From positions 40,997 to 104,996 of the forward strand of contig JACWEQ010000004.1 in NCBI GenBank assembly GCA_014653365.1: a DNA stretch of 64,000 bases. Reading direction: 5' to 3'. The DNA is from Pelagibacterales bacterium SAG-MED49. Its GTDB lineage: Bacteria > Pseudomonadota > Alphaproteobacteria > Pelagibacterales > Pelagibacteraceae. Below, piece after piece: positions 5,160 through 50,729 of this stretch. The notes under the pieces are model-generated. The model ran no database searches and was not told where the DNA came from. It saw nothing but the letters and a program-made list of their open reading frames with translations. Position numbers and translations under genes: made by a program. Positions within the stretch are counted from its first letter, which is position 1. Every line of letters begins with the position of its first letter.

Positions 5160-5927
5160 TTATAAGCTTTTAAGTTCGTATTTTTCTAGAAGTGCATCAA
5201 AGAAACCAGAAGTTTTTTTAATTTCAATCCACTGATTTATGTAATTCATCCATACTTGATCACTTTGGTCAACCATCATTGCTAATGCAGCTGGATTTTT
5301 ACCACCATCTTGTACAATAGCTAATTGTGGGTATTTAATAACAAGTTTATTAGCTTCTGTTGAACTAGTAATATGTCCATCTGCTCTTCCAGCCAAAACT
5401 TCTTGAAAATCTCTAGTAGGAGATTCAATTGATACTAATTTTGATTTAGGAAAAAATTCTTTAGCTTTAGCTTCTTGAGAGGTTCCAAGTGTAGTCGCTA
5501 TGGTGACATCACTGTTATTTAACGAGTCCCAAGTAGAAAATTTAGACAAGTTCTTCTTTAGAACTAAGGGCACTGTTCCATATTTGTAATAAGAAGTTGT
5601 AAAACCTGCAACTAGTGCTCTCTTAGCTGTTTTGGTTACACTTGTTGAGATATCATACCTATTTGAAGTAATTCCTGAAACTATAGTTTTCCATTCAGTC
5701 GGTACAAAAGTTATTTTAACTCCCATATCTTTTGCAAGTTCATTCATTACATCGATATCAAAACCTTTGTATTTGTTAGTAGCTGGATCCTTCATTGTCA
5801 TTGGATCCCAGTCTCCTGTGGTTCCAACTTTTAATTCACCAGATGATAAAATTGTATTTAATTTTGATTCAGCGTTAACTGAAAATGGTAACAATAGCAG
5901 TAAAGTAATTAATATTAGCTTTTTCAT
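5160..5927 (-). CDS. ABC substrate-binding protein, family 3 (cyclohexadienyl dehydratase-like)
   Basis: Signal peptide; [17 protein letters not shown] motifs. Confidence 0.88.
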
Positions 5928-41719: not shown

Positions 41720-42594
41720 ATGAAAGCCATTATTTTTAGCTTACTAGGATGGATGTTTTTACCTGTCATGGATGGTTTTGCTAAATATTTAAGTGATGAT
41801 CTTCCAATTTTACAAATTACTTGGGCTAGATATTTTTTACTGTTGCTTTTGTTTTTCCTATAATGCTTTTTTTTTACAAAAAACAACTTGTTTGGTCAGA
41901 TAAACCTAAGCTTCAAATATTTAGAGGTCTAATTTTACTATCTGCTAATATCTGTTTTTTTTATGCAATTTCAGTCATCTCATTAGCTAAAGCCTTAACT
42001 TTAGCATTTATAGCTCCTTTAATAGTAACAGCATTTTCACCTTTTTTATTAGGAGAAAAAGTTGGTTTTAGAAGGTGGACAGCTGTTGCTGTTGGGTTTA
42101 TTGGGTCATTAATTGTTATTAGACCTGGTTTTCTTGAATTTAACTTGGCAAGTATGGCCGCTTTAGCAACAGGATTCTTTTATGGATTTTATCTTATTAT
42201 TACCCGTAAATTAAGCACCTCAGACAATCCATTGCTTACTCTCTTAATTACTGGAATAGTAGGGGCCTTACTAGTTTCTCTAATTATTCCTTTCTATTGG
42301 GTAAAACCAACACTAAATCAGTGGTCTTTAATGGCCGGTATAGGCATTTTTGCGTGCATAGGTCATTTATTCCTAATATTATCTCTCAAATACGCAGATG
42401 CCTCGAAATTAGCTCCTTTGGGCTATACTGAGATAATACCAAATGTAATAATTGGATATTATTTCTTTAATGAACTCCCAGATAATTGGACTTACTTAGG
42501 TCTTTTCATAATAGTTTTAAGTGGACTTTATATTTCTAGGCGAGAGTACCATCTTAATATTTCTAGGCGAGAGTACCATCTTAGTAGAAATTAA
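41720..42594 (+). pseudogene. DMT (EamA) transporter interrupted by a 1-nt frameshift
   Basis: ATG at 41720 gives MKAIIFSLLGWMFLPVMDGFAKYLSDDLPILQITWARYF; one extra T in the T6 run at 41833-41838 joins it to ORF 41863-42594 (LGEKVG, IRPG). May be an assembly error. Confidence 0.75.
42530..42583 (+). repeat. Perfect 27-bp tandem duplication
   Basis: ATATTTCTAGGCGAGAGTACCATCTTA at 42530-42556 and 42557-42583; protein repeats ISRREYHL. Confidence 0.95.
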
Positions 42595-43137: not shown

Positions 43138-43416
43138 CTATTTAACAAAGACTTTCTCTGACCTCAATAAACGTCTTTTTTGTTTGATTCCACCTTTACC
43201 GGAGTATCCTCCAAGACTTCCATCTGATCTGATCACTCTATGACATGGTATTTTAGGAGGATCAGGGTTTTTACCAACAGCATTTGCTACAGCTCTAAAA
43301 GCCCTGGGTTTTCCAATGGCTTTAGCAACTTCAAGATAGGTTTTGACTTTACCTTTAGGTATTTCCTTCAAGTAGTTCCAGACTTTTAGCTGAAACTTAG
43401 TCCCTTTTAAGTTCAT
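43138..43416 (-). CDS. ogt: Minimal O6-methylguanine-DNA methyltransferase (C-terminal domain only)
   Basis: FQLKVW..L.EIP.G, RAVANA, active-site PCHRV, GGY; start 43416 or 43425. Confidence 0.88.
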   Translation of the reverse strand: MNLKGTKFQLKVWNYLKEIPKGKVKTYLEVAKAIGKPRAFRAVANAVGKNPDPPKIPCHRVIRSDGSLGGYSGKGGIKQKRRLLRSEKVFVK

Positions 43417-43834
43417 AAAGTTCAAATCCTGTATTATTTGCTATTTTATCATATAATTTTTTAGCATTTTCATTAGAAGAGTGGGTGATCCAACGAATTC
43501 CATCCCAATTATTGGCTTTAGATAATGATTTTAGGTAGCTAATGAGTTTTTGAGCTATTTTTTGACGTCTAAATTCTGGCTCTAGGAACAAATCGTCTAA
43601 AAAACCAATATAATGGCCCTTAATTGGTCTTGGCATTGTTCTATAATGAGCAATTCCAACGATGTTACCCTCTAATTCGAAGCAAATACCGTTAACATCA
43701 TGAGTTACATCTTGAATCCAACCCCATAAGGTGTCTAAAGTCCCTTTATTCATTGGCACTTTATAGAAATCAGCATAACCATTATACAATTTAGACCAAT
43801 TTTCCTTATCTTTTAGTTCCAATTTCCTAATCAT
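43397..43834 (-). CDS. GNAT family N-acetyltransferase
   Basis: LDDLFLEPEFRRQKIA, NENAKKLYDK. Confidence 0.88.
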   Translation of the reverse strand: MIRKLELKDKENWSKLYNGYADFYKVPMNKGTLDTLWGWIQDVTHDVNGICFELEGNIVGIAHYRTMPRPIKGHYIGFLDDLFLEPEFRRQKIAQKLISYLKSLSKANNWDGIRWITHSSNENAKKLYDKIANNTGFELYELKRD

Positions 43835-43869
43835 AAACTTTAATAATTCATTTTATATTATTAATATTA

Positions 43870-44343
43870 TTATGCAAACCATCTAAATCCTTCAAACATA
43901 GCTAGACCATATATTGAATGTCTGATTAAAAAAACGAAAGATATTTTTACTGGGTTTTCAGTATTTGAAGCTAAAATACCTTGGCCTGTAAAAGGCAGAA
44001 ATATCAATAATGGTGCTAATGAAGTAATTGCACCAAAAATTAGACCCGAAAAATAAGACATATTCATTCCAAGTTTTATAAAGGCAAAATAATAAATAAC
44101 TGCCCAACATAATGATATGTAATAGTGGAAAATCCATCCAAGTAAGATCTCAAATTTAAATTTTGGCATATTGATAATGTTAGGATTATAAAAAACTTTA
44201 TTTTTAATCATATAATAAGTCCATCTTCCTACAATTCCCCATGAAGGTTCTGGAATTCCAATTAATTTTAATAAATATCCAAGAATGTCTAGAATTATGC
44301 ATGAGAATATACCAGCAACAACAATACTCAAAATATCATTCAT
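43870..44343 (-). CDS. DUF2938-like membrane protein
   Basis: WGIVGRW, LGWIFHY, H.IYG pattern; four hydrophobic helices. Confidence 0.7.
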   Translation of the reverse strand: MNDILSIVVAGIFSCIILDILGYLLKLIGIPEPSWGIVGRWTYYMIKNKVFYNPNIINMPKFKFEILLGWIFHYYISLCWAVIYYFAFIKLGMNMSYFSGLIFGAITSLAPLLIFLPFTGQGILASNTENPVKISFVFLIRHSIYGLAMFEGFRWFA

Positions 44344-44409
44344 TATAAATTTATATCAGACATCAATAATCTTTAAAAATTAAACTATTGACATTAAAAA
44401 TTTATAATA

Positions 44410-44446
44410 TATTACTAACGATAATTAATGGTTATCAATAGTAATA
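44410..44446. other. Imperfect palindrome, candidate recombinase core site or operator
   Basis: TATTACTAACGATAA-TTAATGG-TTATCAATAGTAATA; arms complementary at 13/15, 7-bp asymmetric spacer, ends 3 bp before recombinase ATG. Confidence 0.7.
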
Positions 44447-44449
44447 ATA

Positions 44450-45406
44450 ATGAATGATATAATAACTGACATAAAAGCTTTACAAGAAGAAACTTTATTT
44501 AATCTTCAAAACTCCAAAGCTATTAACACTATAAGAGCATATAAATCAGATTTTAAAGACTTTAGTTTATTCTGTGCAAAAAATAACTTTAAATCGCTTC
44601 CTTCAGAACCAAAAATTGTTTCATTATATTTAACATATTTATCTGCTAAAGATATTAAAATTAGCACTTTAAAGCGCAGATTAGTGTCAATAGGTGTCAT
44701 TCATAGACTGAAAGGCTATTACTTAGATACAAAACATCCATCTATAATTGAAAATGTTTTGGGTATAAAACGAAGAAAAGGCAGCAATTATAAAAGTAAA
44801 AAACCATTATTAATCAGTAGTTTAAAAAAAATAATTGATGTGATAGATGAACAAAATAAGTTAGAAATTAAAAAATTAAGAGATAGATCTATAATTTTAA
44901 TTGGATTTTCAGGGGGATATAGAAGAAATGAAATAGTTTCATTAGACTATGAAGATTTAGATTTTGTAAGTGAGGGACTGAAAATCAATTTAAAAAGATC
45001 AAAAACAGACCAATTTGGAGAAGGTTTTACAAAAGGACTTCCCTACTTTGATAATTCGCAATATTGCCCAGTTAAATCACTTCAAAAATGGATTAAAATA
45101 TCAAAGATAAATTCAGGTCCTTTGTTCAGAAGATTTACAAAAGGATCTAATTTATCAAAAAATAGATTAACTGATCAAACAGTTGCATTGCTAATTAAAG
45201 AATATTTAAAATTATCTGGTATAGACAGCCAAAATTATTCAGGTCATAGTTTAAGGTCAGGTTTTGCTACATCTGCGGCAGAATCTGGTGCTGATGAAAG
45301 AAATATTATGGCAATGACAGGTCACAAATCAACAGAAATGGTTAGAAGATATATCAAAGAAGCCAACTTATTTAAAAACAATGCATTAAATAAAATTAAA
45401 ATTTAA
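44450..45406 (+). CDS. Tyrosine recombinase, Cre-like
   Basis: Full catalytic set: R (GYRRNE), K (RSKTDQ), HSLR, GH, Y (RRY); CPV..L..W; N-terminal core-binding domain (NTIRAY). Confidence 0.95.
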   Translation: MNDIITDIKALQEETLFNLQNSKAINTIRAYKSDFKDFSLFCAKNNFKSLPSEPKIVSLYLTYLSAKDIKISTLKRRLVSIGVIHRLKGYYLDTKHPSIIENVLGIKRRKGSNYKSKKPLLISSLKKIIDVIDEQNKLEIKKLRDRSIILIGFSGGYRRNEIVSLDYEDLDFVSEGLKINLKRSKTDQFGEGFTKGLPYFDNSQYCPVKSLQKWIKISKINSGPLFRRFTKGSNLSKNRLTDQTVALLIKEYLKLSGIDSQNYSGHSLRSGFATSAAESGADERNIMAMTGHKSTEMVRRYIKEANLFKNNALNKIKI

Positions 45407-45494: not shown

Positions 45495-46511
45495 TCAATT
45501 AAAAGAAGAAATTTGATCATCACACATTTTTTTAATTATTGCGCTTAAGTTGGTTTTGGCTGCCCAATTCAGTATTTTTTTTGCCTTTAACGGGTTGGAT
45601 TTAAGGTGATTAACATCTAAGGGTCTATAAAATTTTTTACTTATTTTGATTATTGCTTTGTTACTATTTAAATTAATACATTTTTCATTAATTCCTTTAC
45701 CAGTCCATTTAATATTTATCTTTAAATATTTACATGTCTTGTTAATAAACTCTTTAATACTGTAGCATTTGCCTGTACCTATGATAAAATCATCTTTATT
45801 CTTTATTTGTAACATTTTCCACATTGCCTCAACATAATCTGGCGCAAAACCCCAGTCTCTTTTTGCATAGATATTTCCTAAATACATAATTTTTCTCTTA
45901 TTATTTAAAATTTCACATAATTGTCTAATAATTTTTTTTGTAACAAATTCTTCACCCCTAAGAGGAGATTCGTGGTTAAATAAAATACCTGAACAACAAT
46001 CTAAATTGTAAGCTTTTCTATATAACCTAACTAAATAATGAGACCCAACTTTACTTATGCCATAGGGACTAGCTGGATCAAAATTTGTATTTTCATTAAT
46101 AGATTTTTTTGTTGAGTTTCCAAACATTTCAGATGTCGAAGCTTGATATAAAGATATTTTTTTTTTAGAATTTTTCATTACTTCTAAAATATTTATCAAA
46201 GCAAAAAAATTTGTATTAATTGTATACAAAGGTTGATCAAATGAAGAGGCCACAAAAGACATTGCGGCTAAATTGTATATTTCATCAGGTTTAATTTTAT
46301 TAATGACATAATTTACGGAGGTAAATTCATTAATTTCTAAATCTATTAATTCTATTTTATCCTCAATGCCTAATCTTCTCAGTCTATTATTCTCATAATT
46401 AGAATTTCGTCTATATGCTCCATAAACTTTATATTTTTTAGATAAAAGAAATTTAGCTAGGTAAGCACCATCCTGCCCCATTATACCTGTAATTAAAACT
46501 TTTTTTTTCAT
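45495..46511 (-). CDS. gmd: GDP-mannose 4,6-dehydratase
   Basis: ITGIMGQDGAYLA, YNLAAMSFV, QASTSEMFG, SPYGISK, FNHESPLRG. Confidence 0.95.
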   Translation of the reverse strand: MKKKVLITGIMGQDGAYLAKFLLSKKYKVYGAYRRNSNYENNRLRRLGIEDKIELIDLEINEFTSVNYVINKIKPDEIYNLAAMSFVASSFDQPLYTINTNFFALINILEVMKNSKKKISLYQASTSEMFGNSTKKSINENTNFDPASPYGISKVGSHYLVRLYRKAYNLDCCSGILFNHESPLRGEEFVTKKIIRQLCEILNNKRKIMYLGNIYAKRDWGFAPDYVEAMWKMLQIKNKDDFIIGTGKCYSIKEFINKTCKYLKINIKWTGKGINEKCINLNSNKAIIKISKKFYRPLDVNHLKSNPLKAKKILNWAAKTNLSAIIKKMCDDQISSFN

Positions 46512-46699
46512 TTTTCTAATATCTTTAAAAAATTATTAGCTGAATTGATCCAATTATTACTATTTCTAATCTTATATAAACTTTTATTCAGTTGTATACA
46601 TAAATCATTATCATTAAAAAGATCCAATATATATTTTGCAAATTTCTTCTCATTTAAGCAAAAAAAACTTTTATTATGAATAACGCTTTTCTTAATAAG
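46508..46699 (-). pseudogene. C-terminal remnant of a GT4 glycosyltransferase
   Basis: 63-codon open frame with no ATG (VIHNKSFFCLNEKKFAKYILDLFNDNDL...RNSNNWINSANNFL) resembling the C-terminus of 47632-48606; its TGA overlaps the gmd ATG. Confidence 0.7.
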
Positions 46700-46720
46700 C
46701 TAATAAAAATTATAACAATT

Positions 46721-47620
46721 TTAAATTTTCCAAATTCTAAATATAAGTTTATATGAAAAAGTTAGAAATAGAACTATAGAAATTAATCTTAATAAATTTT
46801 TATATGACTTATTGAGTCTAAAAATTATTAAATTAATAAAAAATCTTAGAAAATAATCAACAAAATTATTAATAATATGAATAAATAATAATTTATGAGA
46901 GGAATTTTTATTTAAATATATATAAGATGAAACTTTATGAATAATTGACAATTTTGTGTCAGTAAAAAATTTCTTTTTAGCAGATGAATTTTCTAGATGT
47001 ATAAATTTGGCAGCAGGAACTTCAATTACATATTTATTTTTTTTCAAAGTACGATCGCAAATATCGTTATCTTCAAAATACATAAAAAAATTTTTATCAA
47101 AACCACCCAATGTATTAAAAAAATCTCTTTTCATTAGATAGCAGCACCCCATTAAAAAATCACAACATGTATTACCAATCGGTATATTATTTAATTTTTC
47201 AGAAACTTTAATGCCTTTCAATTTATTTATATAAGAAATTGAACCATTAGTTCTTCTTCTCATATTTTTATCATATAAAGATGGTCCTAATATACCTATA
47301 TTTTCAGGGTCTTCTAAAAAATATTTAAGAAGTTTTTCTATAGAATTTTCATTTAAAACTATATCAGGATTTGTAATTAATATATATGGTGTGTCGGCAT
47401 AAGAAACGCCTAAGTTATTGCCTTGCCCATAACCTAAATTTTTAGGTGATCTTATTACCCTAATGTTTTTAAATCTTTCAACAATTGAGTATAATTGATT
47501 AGAATTTGAATTATCAACAATGATTACAGGAAATTTTTTAAGAATGTCTAAATTTTTAATAATTAAATTTTCACTTCTATAAGTAACAAGTATCAATGTA
47601 ATGTTTTTGTAAATATTCAT
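46721..47620 (-). CDS. Glycosyltransferase family 2 (WbbL-like)
   Basis: IVDNS, NLGYGQGNNLG, NPD, GGFDKNFFMYFEDNDIC. Confidence 0.92.
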   Translation of the reverse strand: MNIYKNITLILVTYRSENLIIKNLDILKKFPVIIVDNSNSNQLYSIVERFKNIRVIRSPKNLGYGQGNNLGVSYADTPYILITNPDIVLNENSIEKLLKYFLEDPENIGILGPSLYDKNMRRRTNGSISYINKLKGIKVSEKLNNIPIGNTCCDFLMGCCYLMKRDFFNTLGGFDKNFFMYFEDNDICDRTLKKNKYVIEVPAAKFIHLENSSAKKKFFTDTKLSIIHKVSSYIYLNKNSSHKLLFIHIINNFVDYFLRFFINLIIFRLNKSYKNLLRLISIVLFLTFSYKLIFRIWKI

Positions 47621-47631
47621 CCCTTCTTAAA

Positions 47632-48606
47632 CTATAATTGATTTAAAAGATTGGAAGCTACCATAGACCATTTTTTTGTACCTCTTAAATTAAGCAAATT
47701 ATTTCGTAATTTTTTCCACAAATTTATGTCATTAAATAATTTTAATGTATAATAACCAAATTCTTCATTATTTTTTGCTATAAAACCTGTTACACCATGA
47801 TGAACTCTCTCCGAGAGAGACCCTATTCCTAATGTTATTATTGGTATGCATAATTCTCTAGCCTCTTCAGCAGCTATACAGTAAAGTTCACCTTTATGAC
47901 CAGGAACCAACAGAACTTTTGATTTAAGCAAATCATTAACCATTGTTGTTTTATCACCAAAATTTCTAGCAAAAATATTGTATTGACCGTCTATTAGATC
48001 GCTTGGTGTAGTATACAGTTTTATTGATTGATTTTTGGGAAATATGTTTTCTCTCCAAATATTGATTAATATATCTAAATTTCTATCACTTCTTGAAGTA
48101 AATATTGCATTATTATCAATTAAGTTCTCATCTAATTTGGTTTGTAAAAAAAGTGGATCTACAGCCCATTCTAAATTAATCGTACCAAACATTTTTAAAA
48201 AATAATTACGATTTTTGTAATGATAATTACCTAAAATAACAATTTTAGGTTTATATTTTAAATAACTAATTAGTTGTCGTTTACGTATAAATTTTTCGAT
48301 TGATTGTATGCTATGTGAAAAAGCTACATATTTTTTGGCAACAATTCTGTCAAAAAGTCCGATGTCATTATTTGTAAAAGCAACATCGTAAACTAAATTT
48401 TTATTAACTTGACTTATATTAGACCATTTTACATTATTTATAATATTTGTATCAATACAATTGTTATATACATCTACATTAATACCTAATTTAGAAAGTT
48501 CATTGGATAAATGAATTATAGCATTTTCACCACCTCTAATATTTTTTGAATTTAAGTCATTATAAGTGTAAGAGATTAATGAATTGTCTAAAAAACAAAT
48601 TTTCAT
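47632..48606 (-). CDS. Glycosyltransferase (GT-B, GT4-like)
   Basis: GGEN, ELYCIAAEEA (EX7E), TGFI. Confidence 0.82.
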   Translation of the reverse strand: MKICFLDNSLISYTYNDLNSKNIRGGENAIIHLSNELSKLGINVDVYNNCIDTNIINNVKWSNISQVNKNLVYDVAFTNNDIGLFDRIVAKKYVAFSHSIQSIEKFIRKRQLISYLKYKPKIVILGNYHYKNRNYFLKMFGTINLEWAVDPLFLQTKLDENLIDNNAIFTSRSDRNLDILINIWRENIFPKNQSIKLYTTPSDLIDGQYNIFARNFGDKTTMVNDLLKSKVLLVPGHKGELYCIAAEEARELCIPIITLGIGSLSERVHHGVTGFIAKNNEEFGYYTLKLFNDINLWKKLRNNLLNLRGTKKWSMVASNLLNQL

Positions 48607-50729
48607 TAGAATAAACTTGATTTATTTCCTAAAGAAACATCGATAATATATTTAGATATTTTATTTCCATTAAACAGCTTAAAGTATTTTGCTTTACCCC
48701 GTTTCGCAATTATTTTTCTTAATTTGTCATTTTTAGAATAAAATTTAATTTTAGAAGCCAAATCATTAATATCATTATAAAAAATTACCTCTTTATTAGT
48801 AAAAAAATCATTTAACTGGGTTTTTTTATCAATAAAAGTTAGTAAACCATTACCTAAAATTGAAGCAATCCTATTACTTGAATAATACTTTGTGGGAATG
48901 CCCCTGCTCAAATTTAATCCCATTTTTGAATCAATTATTGCATCGTAAAAATCATTACCCCAAATTGGTTGTTTATTTCTAAATCCTCTAAAGTCATGTT
49001 TTATATTAGGAATATTTTTTAAAAGTTTTTCTAAAAAAATAATCCTATTATCCTCAAATCCGACTTTTAGAACACCTCTATTGACGCCATGGCTCATAGC
49101 ATAAAAAATATCATTTTTTGGACGTAAATTATAAACATTGAAGCATTCAATGTTATTGTCGACAGGTACAAAGAAAAAATTAAAATTATTAAATTTAAAT
49201 TTGTTTTTTAAAATTGATGGATCAGTGGTTATAAAATTGTGATCTACTAATGATACATAAGGCTTAATATTTTCAATATTTTTTTTTGAAAATTTTAAAT
49301 TAGGCATAAGTGGGTCCTCATTCCAATGTGATATAATAAGATTTTTATTTATAGACCTCAATTCATCCAAAGTTGATACGTCGATATTATTTGTGTGTCC
49401 AAAAAAAAATAAATCTGGATTATAGTTTTTAAAGGACTCTATTAAATGTCTTTGAAATAACTGTCTATTTGAGTTTAAATTCAATATTGATCTTTTATTT
49501 TTAATAAAATCACGATCACTGATTTCTAAGACATCATGATTATTTCTAATAAATCCATTTGAAAATTTTTTTCCTAAAGAAATATTATATAATCTATAAT
49601 TTGATTTTTGACCTTGGTTAAATAAATTGATAATTTTTAATCTTTTTCTTAATATATTTAATTGATATTTTGGAAAAACTGAACTTCTCATCAAATCAAT
49701 ATTTTTTGTATTATTTGATATTTTGTGCTTTATATTTTGTCTTGATAAATTTTGAATTTTTTTTCTTTTAGTCTTATTTTGAATTAATGATTTAATTGCA
49801 TTGAAGAGTTTTATTGAATTTATTTTGTTTATATTAATTGCATAGTCATTTGTCTCACATAAACCACCTGTGTTAGAAGTAATTGTGGCACAACTACAAG
49901 CTGCTGCTTCAAGAGCCACTCTACCAAATGGCTCTTCCCATCTTGATGGTACAACAGCTATTTCAGATTGATCTAAAATTTTTAATACCTTTTTGTGATC
50001 CACAAAACCTAATTCTTTATGTTGTTTGTGATTAATATAAATATTTCTCCTACTTTCATTACCAATAGAAAATGCTTTCCAGTCAGGGTATTCGTCTAAA
50101 ATTTTTAATACAGCATCTTTAAAAATATCATAGCCTTTTGAGTAATTCAATTTTCCAGCAAAAACTATATATTTAGATTTGGTAATTTTTTTTCTTTTAT
50201 CTACACTGTGGTAAATAATTTCTGTTTTCTCTAAAAATTTATTGTTTACACCTTTAAAAAATCTGTCTTTAACCCATTTACTTATAAATACTAGTTTATC
50301 TACCTTATTAATAATTTCATTTCTTTCTGAAATTGATTTTGAGCCAGACATTGATAATGGATCATTATGATAATACATAATATATCGGGCATCAACTTTT
50401 CCTATCAACTTTAATAAAACTAAAGGTCTATTGTGTATTTCTATTATATCAAATTTTTCTTCACTTAATTTAATAATTAATTTTTCTATATATTCATTAG
50501 AGGTGCTTTGAAATCTAAATTTAAGAGTATCTAAAAATATATTTCTATAGTTTTTTGTTAAATATTTTCCTTCTTTTGTATTTCCATATATAAAATTATT
50601 ATCTTTAAATATTGAATTTTTAAAAAATTCTGAAACCCAAAGAGAAACTGCAGAGGCGTAACCTAAAGTATAGCTTTCTTTATAGGGTAAAATTGTTGCT
50701 ATTTTATGAATTTTTTTTTTTGAAATCAT
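48606..50729 (-). CDS. Two-module GT-B glycosyltransferase fusion
   Basis: N-module PSRWEEPFGRVALEA; C-module YYSSNRIA...G.LTF resembles Glyco_trans_1_2. Confidence 0.85.
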   Translation of the reverse strand: MISKKKIHKIATILPYKESYTLGYASAVSLWVSEFFKNSIFKDNNFIYGNTKEGKYLTKNYRNIFLDTLKFRFQSTSNEYIEKLIIKLSEEKFDIIEIHNRPLVLLKLIGKVDARYIMYYHNDPLSMSGSKSISERNEIINKVDKLVFISKWVKDRFFKGVNNKFLEKTEIIYHSVDKRKKITKSKYIVFAGKLNYSKGYDIFKDAVLKILDEYPDWKAFSIGNESRRNIYINHKQHKELGFVDHKKVLKILDQSEIAVVPSRWEEPFGRVALEAAACSCATITSNTGGLCETNDYAININKINSIKLFNAIKSLIQNKTKRKKIQNLSRQNIKHKISNNTKNIDLMRSSVFPKYQLNILRKRLKIINLFNQGQKSNYRLYNISLGKKFSNGFIRNNHDVLEISDRDFIKNKRSILNLNSNRQLFQRHLIESFKNYNPDLFFFGHTNNIDVSTLDELRSINKNLIISHWNEDPLMPNLKFSKKNIENIKPYVSLVDHNFITTDPSILKNKFKFNNFNFFFVPVDNNIECFNVYNLRPKNDIFYAMSHGVNRGVLKVGFEDNRIIFLEKLLKNIPNIKHDFRGFRNKQPIWGNDFYDAIIDSKMGLNLSRGIPTKYYSSNRIASILGNGLLTFIDKKTQLNDFFTNKEVIFYNDINDLASKIKFYSKNDKLRKIIAKRGKAKYFKLFNGNKISKYIIDVSLGNKSSLF

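Follow-up and report, generated by a model that had tools for sequence, protein, structure and literature searches.

A tyrosine recombinase gene and the palindrome immediately upstream of it very probably constitute the chromosome-dimer resolution system of the Pelagibacteraceae, in place of XerC/XerD-dif. The pair was located in a window of 64,000 nucleotides (the whole stretch of DNA that was analysed) from Pelagibacterales bacterium SAG-MED49; the window sits on C33, a 105-kb contig of this genome (G000). No XerC or XerD was found in the family genomes searched, and one Cre-like gene lies behind a single conserved palindrome at the place in the chromosome where the second family of the order has a dif-like site, so the module is likely to separate fused sister chromosomes. 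No published description of a SAR11 recombinase/palindrome module was found in the main texts of the literature searched, most of it open-access.

The recombinase

The recombinase gene (44450..45406, + strand) is an intact open reading frame of 318 amino acids belonging to PF00589. All six catalytic residues are present (R158, K185, H266, R269, H292 and Y301); in an alignment of 115 sequences the columns of R158, K185, H266, R269 and Y301 are invariant and that of H292 nearly so, giving the R-K-H-R-(H/W)-Y signature of tyrosine recombinases. The Cre-like motifs named in the first-pass annotation, RSKTDQFGEG and CPVKSLQKW, were both read in the translation. Scores against models of the Xer types fell well below the respective cut-offs, at 75.6 bits for XerC (cut-off 329.6), 67.9 for XerD (335), 50.5 for XerS (267) and 75.9 for XerA (220), and the gene is the sole PF00589 match in G000, which leaves no second paralogue as in XerC/XerD.

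The best match by sequence among solved structures is Cre (E 5e-11). The predicted structure (pLDDT 94.7) gave top PDB matches that are all Cre or Tre, at a TM-score of about 0.8 as against 0.4-0.6 for XerA/XerH, and the predicted fold is Cre-like. TnpS is closer in sequence, with 28% identity over 308 amino acids compared with about 20-23% for Cre. The enzyme may therefore be called Cre-like, as it was at the outset, in the sense that Cre is nearest in sequence and fold among solved structures, but it is not a strict Cre-type member, given the spacer of its site and a histidine for Trp315.

The nearest relatives outside the Pelagibacteraceae form a large nameless family of 35-47% identity that is common on plasmids of many phyla. 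Six of nine plasmid homologues read have a long GATAA-N6-8-TTATC palindrome upstream, with a 7-nt centre in four of these. In a tree built by a quick method, which took in 55 Pelagibacteraceae rows and two of six Xer rows and left out G140, the 55 proteins form one clade (SH-aLRT 100) amid plasmid-type relatives and far from XerC/XerD. The backbone of this tree is without resolution and Cre and TnpS attach on long branches, so that the tree does not point to a donor. The probable source of the module is a plasmid or another mobile element, a setting in which relatives sit behind palindromes of the same core. No close relative of the recombinase was found in a search of viral contigs. One subclade (G055, G027, G021 and G038; L236, L237, L238, L239) carries a 16-residue N-terminal extension, for a total of 334 amino acids.

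The palindromic site and the probable promoter

The site spans 37 nt (44410-44446, + strand) and consists of a left arm (44410..44424), an asymmetric 7-nt centre, TTAATGG (44425..44431), which is the predicted region of strand exchange, and a right arm (44432..44446) that stops 3 nt before the ATG. The 15-nt arms are complementary at 13 of 15 positions (87%), and both the geometry and the coordinates are as originally described. Taken alone, such a palindrome is not beyond chance in DNA this AT-rich (26-29% GC): the window holds six with 15-nt arms, at most two mismatches and a spacer of 5-9 nt, compared with two in one shuffle. The site is accepted as real because it is conserved among relatives and not because it is palindromic. 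Mean identity over the 37 nt is 98% in 29 relatives, as against 37% (ungapped) at 31-80 nt upstream, and GATAA-N7-TTATC, with the centre left free, lies upstream of the recombinase in all 55 loci read. Of 84 loci, among which some genomes are counted twice, 64 have TTAATGG as the spacer and 14 TTAATTG. A G(T)-A-T(G)-A motif next to the spacer and a distance to the gene of less than 1 kb are features of Cre-type/lox pairs given in PMC10250229, and both are found here, the motif as an invariant GATA. Even with ten substitutions allowed, G000 holds one copy of the site. Read-derived contigs from four runs support the window sequence piecewise, the bin with the site being common to many strains.

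A -35-like hexamer, TTGACA, was read directly at 44388..44393 (+ strand), where it had been reported, and is a candidate for part of the recombinase promoter. In each of 56 loci examined a TTG(A/C)(C/A) motif ends 26-28 nt ahead of the core GATAA, and this fixed distance makes it likely that the promoter overlaps the left arm, as first proposed, with transcription starting inside the site; from its spacing to the -35 hexamer, the outer 6 nt of the left arm would be the -10 element. The distance between the two elements is 16 nt in the window and 17 in most relatives. The promoter spacer of the window (44394-44409) is one base shorter than that of most relatives, and an extra A at 44395 appears in contigs from three runs. 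A generic sigma-70 scan returned three matches with 3.0 expected, and the proposed promoter was not among them. Recombinase bound at the site would block this promoter and may in this way repress its own synthesis.

Overlap with the presumed promoter at every locus is also what would be seen if the palindrome were only an autoregulatory operator and the enzyme worked at other places or at no fixed site, as it might in decatenation. An operator, however, requires neither a position at the terminus (see below) nor a conserved asymmetric spacer, and G000 has no second similar site; that the palindrome is an operator and nothing more is considered very improbable, and recombination at the site itself is the reading followed here.

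Two site types

Two types of site were distinguished, type A, that of the window, with long imperfect arms, and type B, with perfect arms of 9-10 nt (TTCCGATAA/TTATCGGAA). The type-A 25-mer is present in 126 of 201 genomes and the type-B site in 44 of 203, as a single copy in each, the exception being a weak second match to type A in G048. At arm position 8, 20 of 37 distinct sites have A-T and the other 17 have T-A, always as a pair, so both arms change together. A segment of 12 residues (codons 227-238; 45128..45163, + strand) occurs in all proteins with a type-A site and is absent from all those with a type-B site, which also have K in place of Q243. Residues 227-238 align with the RVRKNG loop of Cre ahead of helix J, and in Cre this loop and helix J contact and read the DNA arms. 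In the tree, site type tracks the protein and not the genus: g1 and g8 each hold both types, and G028, placed outside the main type-A clade, retains a type-A site together with type-A protein features. This covariation of arms and protein is the best sequence evidence on the point and suggests that the recombinase binds this site. The two natural variants and the 12-residue indel would represent a compact specificity switch and are candidate orthogonal recombinase/site pairs that screens for 8-bp spacers would have missed.

Distribution and mutual exclusion with XerC/XerD

An orthologue of the recombinase is found in 183 of 201 Pelagibacteraceae genomes, in 150 of 161 high-quality ones and in 10 of 11 genera, and a PF00589 match of any kind occurs in 184 family genomes, about 138 of which have exactly one; counts of this kind across related genomes are not independent. 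The family tallies take in two unpublished genomes, G124 and G045, and no single claim depends on either. The XerD HMM at E<=1e-40 matched 0 of 203 Pelagibacteraceae genomes as against every one of 27 from the second family of the order, where the matches lie just below the curated cut-off and 22 of the 27 genomes have two; the XerC model likewise matched the second family in the four genomes searched. No orthologue of the recombinase was found in the second family (best E 1e-9). The initial idea that gene and palindrome might be single-copy and syntenic across the Pelagibacterales thus holds within the Pelagibacteraceae and fails for the order as a whole, in that the second family has XerC/XerD-like genes instead. 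The absence of xerC/xerD, to which the same annotation had looked for support, is borne out by the HMM search. As for a canonical dif, the pattern matches of G000 and G059 are no more than chance would give, and their contexts are not dif-like. The asymmetric 28-bp site with a 6-bp centre that typifies XerC/XerD-dif also differs from the palindrome, which has symmetric arms and a 7-nt centre.

Labels in the JGI database name this recombinase family XerD, and a 2026 preprint (10.64898/2026.10.07.757358) gives XerC and XerD for Arctic SAR11 from automatic annotation pipelines, which the HMM search (0 of 203) does not reproduce. In PMC2731167, P. ubique is listed as being without a dif/Xer system. 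If the present reading is true, the survey listing and the XerC/XerD labels would both be in error for the ocean's most abundant bacteria.

That listing could instead be taken at face value: SAR11 would simply be without dimer resolution, and the module would be the fixed relic of an old mobile element with nothing essential to do. The relatives of the recombinase are plasmid-borne and patchy, which would suit a relic, as would the frameshift that splits the gene in G115 (C1:571219-572134) and in G140 (C1:595396-596348), each a single-contig genome. The site is intact in both, and the split genes may be either assembly errors or a mark of real dispensability. A relic would hardly be expected, however, to keep a near-invariant non-coding site and an intact active site in 10 of 11 genera with strongly streamlined genomes, and there is scarcely any likelihood that it is the correct explanation. 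No match to the recombinase was obtained in 18 of 201 genomes, G073 and G011 (99% complete, about 20 contigs) among them; like the split genes, these gaps count against the module as the dimer-resolution system and may reflect either faulty assembly or real dispensability.

Beyond the Pelagibacteraceae, 8 of 298 alphaproteobacterial genomes match the recombinase at E<=1e-40. MarineAlpha5_Bin12 (L450) has a homologue of 45% identity at a gene convergence, preceded at a distance of 24 nt by a perfect site (15/15); G448 (L458; 1.6 Mb, 96% complete) has a homologue and a site with a 6-nt centre; and G446 (L462) has a homologue and no site by the pattern used. None of these three has an XerD-grade gene. 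In G503 and G568 the homologue coexists with XerC/XerD. The homologues in MarineAlpha5_Bin12, G448 and G446, as small or XerD-less genomes, possibly represent independent captures.

Position at the inferred replication terminus

It had been anticipated that the GC-skew extremum would fall at the module. On the 105-kb contig of the window the cumulative maximum is 1.3 kb from the site, and in the whole chromosome of G059 (1,301,899 bp) the maximum, at 552,104, and the site, at 549,172, are 2.9 kb apart; the gene-orientation maximum of G059 is at 552,534 and its skew minimum, at 1,207,785, lies roughly half the circle away. When third-position skew of G059 is separated by gene strand, its peaks are at 379 kb and 658 kb, and intergenic skew has its peak at 281 kb, none of them at the site, which indicates that the skew signal of this chromosome is mostly gene orientation. 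Local skew maxima lie 0.9-2.4 kb from the site in G023, G024 and G055, and skew is positive to the left and negative to the right of the site in 38 of 43 loci of 20 kb.

In 43 of 44 single-contig genomes the gene lies 0.40-0.49 of the circle downstream of dnaA. The exception is G055, where the site is 0.86 from dnaA and dnaA is only 193 kb away. The local skew maximum of G055, 1 kb from the site, and the strands of the octamer AGTAGGAG (described below), 19 of 21 copies of which are on one strand, fit one large inverted block containing dnaA, and the block is probably a mis-join, though it may be real. On the evidence of skew and gene orientation, the family would appear to have a single non-coding site of this kind at the replication terminus.

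Gene orientation converges on the module and brackets it within about 2 kb. The strand switch initially placed there stands with a refinement, since three short minus-strand genes (43138-44343) adjoin the site on the left; the block of plus-strand genes runs up to 42594, and that of minus-strand genes starts at 45495. The reported absence of phage, transposase and conjugation genes holds for the seven neighbours scanned, and its scope is those seven. The divergent neighbour of the recombinase varies between genomes, and the module is flanked by genes of housekeeping or envelope function. On either side of it (43138-44343 and 45495-48606) there is a small variable zone of one to several genes (DUF2938, GDP-mannose dehydratase, glycosyltransferases) that differ among close relatives. 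An EamA transporter reading frame (41863-42594) has REYHL duplicated at its end and encodes 243 amino acids compared with 282 in a relative. Local inversion of the module was considered and rejected: its orientation to the flanking genes is fixed, and flips relative to dnaA are larger inversions.

A conserved flanking glycosyltransferase gene (48606..50729, - strand; family F1) is present in 42 of 45 loci and has homologues in G201 and G213 of the second family. In two of the three second-family genomes searched, these same two, there is a canonical ATAA-N6-TTAT dif-like site (G201:C2 about 154,720; G213:C2 about 47,530; L422-L425), which lies within 0.6 kb of a local skew maximum, 1.6 kb from the glycosyltransferase homologue and just before a tatD-metG-holB-tmk-dacA-like run of genes, the names of which were assigned by reading translations. 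The same run follows the module in genera g8, g10 and g11. These common flanking genes are most simply explained if the module came to occupy the ancestral position of dif, and the arrangement suggests a positional replacement of dif in the Pelagibacteraceae. The XerC- and XerD-like genes of G201 and G213 are located elsewhere in those genomes.

FtsK and the octamer AGTAGGAG

A cognate FtsK, which the proposed system would need, was found with its gamma domain in G000. A recombinase conserved across the clade and FtsK are two marks of chromosome-dimer resolution systems, and both are present, FtsK having been checked in G000. A search of G059 for octamers polarised about the site, with the split fixed there, yielded one outlier, AGTAGGAG, with 37 copies pointing toward the site and 1 away (L156-L221). 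All nine copies that are antisense to genes in G059 lie on the leading strand. In 12 other genomes 236 of 294 copies (80%) point toward the site, compared with leading-strand coding of 65% in G059, and with G055 added the figure is 246 of 315; many copies are at orthologous places, so these counts are not independent. Polarity is weak in three genomes (26 of 38 in G024, for example), and one copy in G139, 1.1 kb from the site, points away. On contig C2 of G201, 9 of 11 copies point toward the canonical dif-like site. In the window, copies at 5415..5422 (+ strand; C33:46411) and, on the other side, at 50047..50054 (- strand; C33:91043) point to the site. GGGNAGGG, the classical KOPS motif, is distributed 10 to 5 in G059 and was set aside as unconvincing. 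AGTAGGAG is a candidate for the FtsK-orienting KOPS motif of SAR11, with a Chi-like role as the alternative.

In the proposed mechanism, one recombinase monomer would bind each arm of the site, and FtsK translocation, for which AGTAGGAG may serve as a guide, would unite the two sister sites of a dimer at the septum. Strands would then be swapped across the central 7 nt by a homotetramer, by way of a Holliday junction, to give two monomeric chromosomes. Cre-loxP placed at dif replaces XerCD-dif in E. coli and needs the translocation and not the activation function of FtsK, according to PMC2680272; by analogy, FtsK would probably be needed here for simple synapse and not to switch on the enzyme. 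Binding would also cover the promoter, and repression could keep a constitutive enzyme scarce. The module, once captured from a mobile element, probably landed at the ancestral dif position. With the gene, the site and a candidate guide motif named, the scheme is testable in E. coli within weeks.

Copies of the site in phages

When 50,697 phage records were searched with the site by blastn, pelagiphages HTVC100P and HTVC035P gave the best two matches. In both, an A-like and a B-like site stand in tandem upstream of the terminase module, in a non-coding stretch some 250-300 nt from the end of the record. Eleven HTVC010P-type isolates were scanned, two whole and nine in part; under a strict scan four pass, always in that stretch, compared with three matches in shuffled DNA totalling 570 kb. 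Only degenerate cores are seen in HTVC010P itself and five further isolates, and the integrase-bearing HTVC028P has none. In IMG/VR, type-B arms were found in about 170 stretches as against none for one control palindrome. The first 80 IMG/VR loci include 33 of low GC content with an HTVC010P-like terminase and 34 higher-GC elements, some with a homologue of their own. Most phage centres are 1-2 nt off those of the host, a few are identical and some have 6 nt. HTVC010P-type phages carry single or tandem type-A/type-B sites without a recombinase (L276, L277, L444, L445, L279-L398). A loose 15-letter pattern applied to viral contigs was discarded as giving mostly chance matches (6 of 120 within two changes of the host spacer), and blastn of the site against plasmids and of the type-B site against phage isolates returned chance matches only.

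These copies, and the variation among close relatives of the genes on both sides of the module, would accord with a recombinase whose main job is phage or cassette integration or exchange at the terminus, with the palindrome as its binding site. Against this, none of the 201 and 231 genomes searched has two full copies of the site, none of the eight host flanking genes occurs in any of 243 viral loci with a site-like match, and the mutual exclusion with XerC/XerD would be left unexplained. Integration or exchange as the main function is regarded as very unlikely, and dimer resolution is preferred. The phage copies would be best explained by the host enzyme acting between them to circularise phage DNA or to resolve multimers, in the manner of Cre in P1; they may otherwise serve for integration or as decoys for binding. 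The integrase-less HTVC010P-type subgroup is called strictly lytic in PMC8477408, and the copies raise a route by which integrase-less pelagiphages could use a host enzyme.

A joint reading may be offered tentatively, though as a whole it is doubtful. XerCD-dif would have been swapped for a captured Cre-like pair at the same spot, a natural dif::loxP, the two specificity variants of which were exchanged between genera. HTVC010P-type phages, the most abundant "strictly lytic" ones, would carry one or both variants near the genome end and borrow the host enzyme, whether for circularising or resolving their own DNA or for integration in the absence of an integrase. The new octamer would steer FtsK, and the same capture would have occurred in other small alphaproteobacterial genomes without XerCD.

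Comparison with known systems

The module has in common with XerC/XerD-dif its proposed role and position, the FtsK gamma domain and the inner ATAA...TTAT of the site; it differs in having one enzyme, symmetric arms and N7 in place of N6, and in lying on a long branch apart in the tree. The phage copies recall IMEX elements such as CTXphi and LME-1, mobile DNA without a recombinase of its own that mimics a host site. Unlike IMEX, the SAR11 carriers are tailed phages described as strictly lytic (PMC8477408), and no integrated form was found.

TnpS/rst of Tn4651 (pWW0) includes the closest characterised protein compared; TnpS was picked by position in pWW0, the record label being only "site-specific integrase". 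TnpS is Cre-related and has its site just upstream, according to PMC4337579 and PMC7157771. It resolves transposon cointegrates with a divergent helper, TnpT, whereas the SAR11 module has no conserved divergent partner, and neither a divergent tnpT nor a nearby Tn3-family transposase gene is found at the module. The intergenic region of pWW0 holds no GATAA-N6-8-TTATC within one substitution.

Cre/loxP of P1 is the best solved match in sequence and fold, likewise has symmetric arms and can resolve dimers in E. coli. The SAR11 protein differs in having His292 where Cre has Trp315 and in being the product of a native chromosomal core gene, and on the loxP register (ATA...TAT) the spacer of its site is 9 nt, as against the 8 bp between 13-15-bp arms of Cre-type sites. 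If the present reading is true, a Cre-branch recombinase from a mobile element would here, in nature, have acquired a central task of the cell cycle; the classification paper PMC8138268 argues against change in that direction for Xer genes in general.

Single-recombinase systems are already known in XerS, XerH and XerA (PMC5357621). XerL/dif of the Legionellales (PMC9765430) is alike in being a single recombinase, with symmetric arms and a mobile-element mimic, in a group once listed as without dif/Xer; its function has been shown experimentally, and by description XerL is set apart from the SAR11 protein, being longer (catalytic Y387). The nearest parallel in organisation is XerS/difSL of streptococci and lactococci, in which a single recombinase and an adjoining site likewise form one module at the terminus (PMC5357621). 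XerS has 356 amino acids, is Xer-type and acts on a site with an 11-bp centre, whereas the SAR11 protein is Cre-like and its site has a 7-nt centre. The SAR11 module would appear to work like XerS/difSL with a Cre-like enzyme, and to stand outside XerC/D, XerS, XerA, TnpS/T and strict Cre-type pairs.
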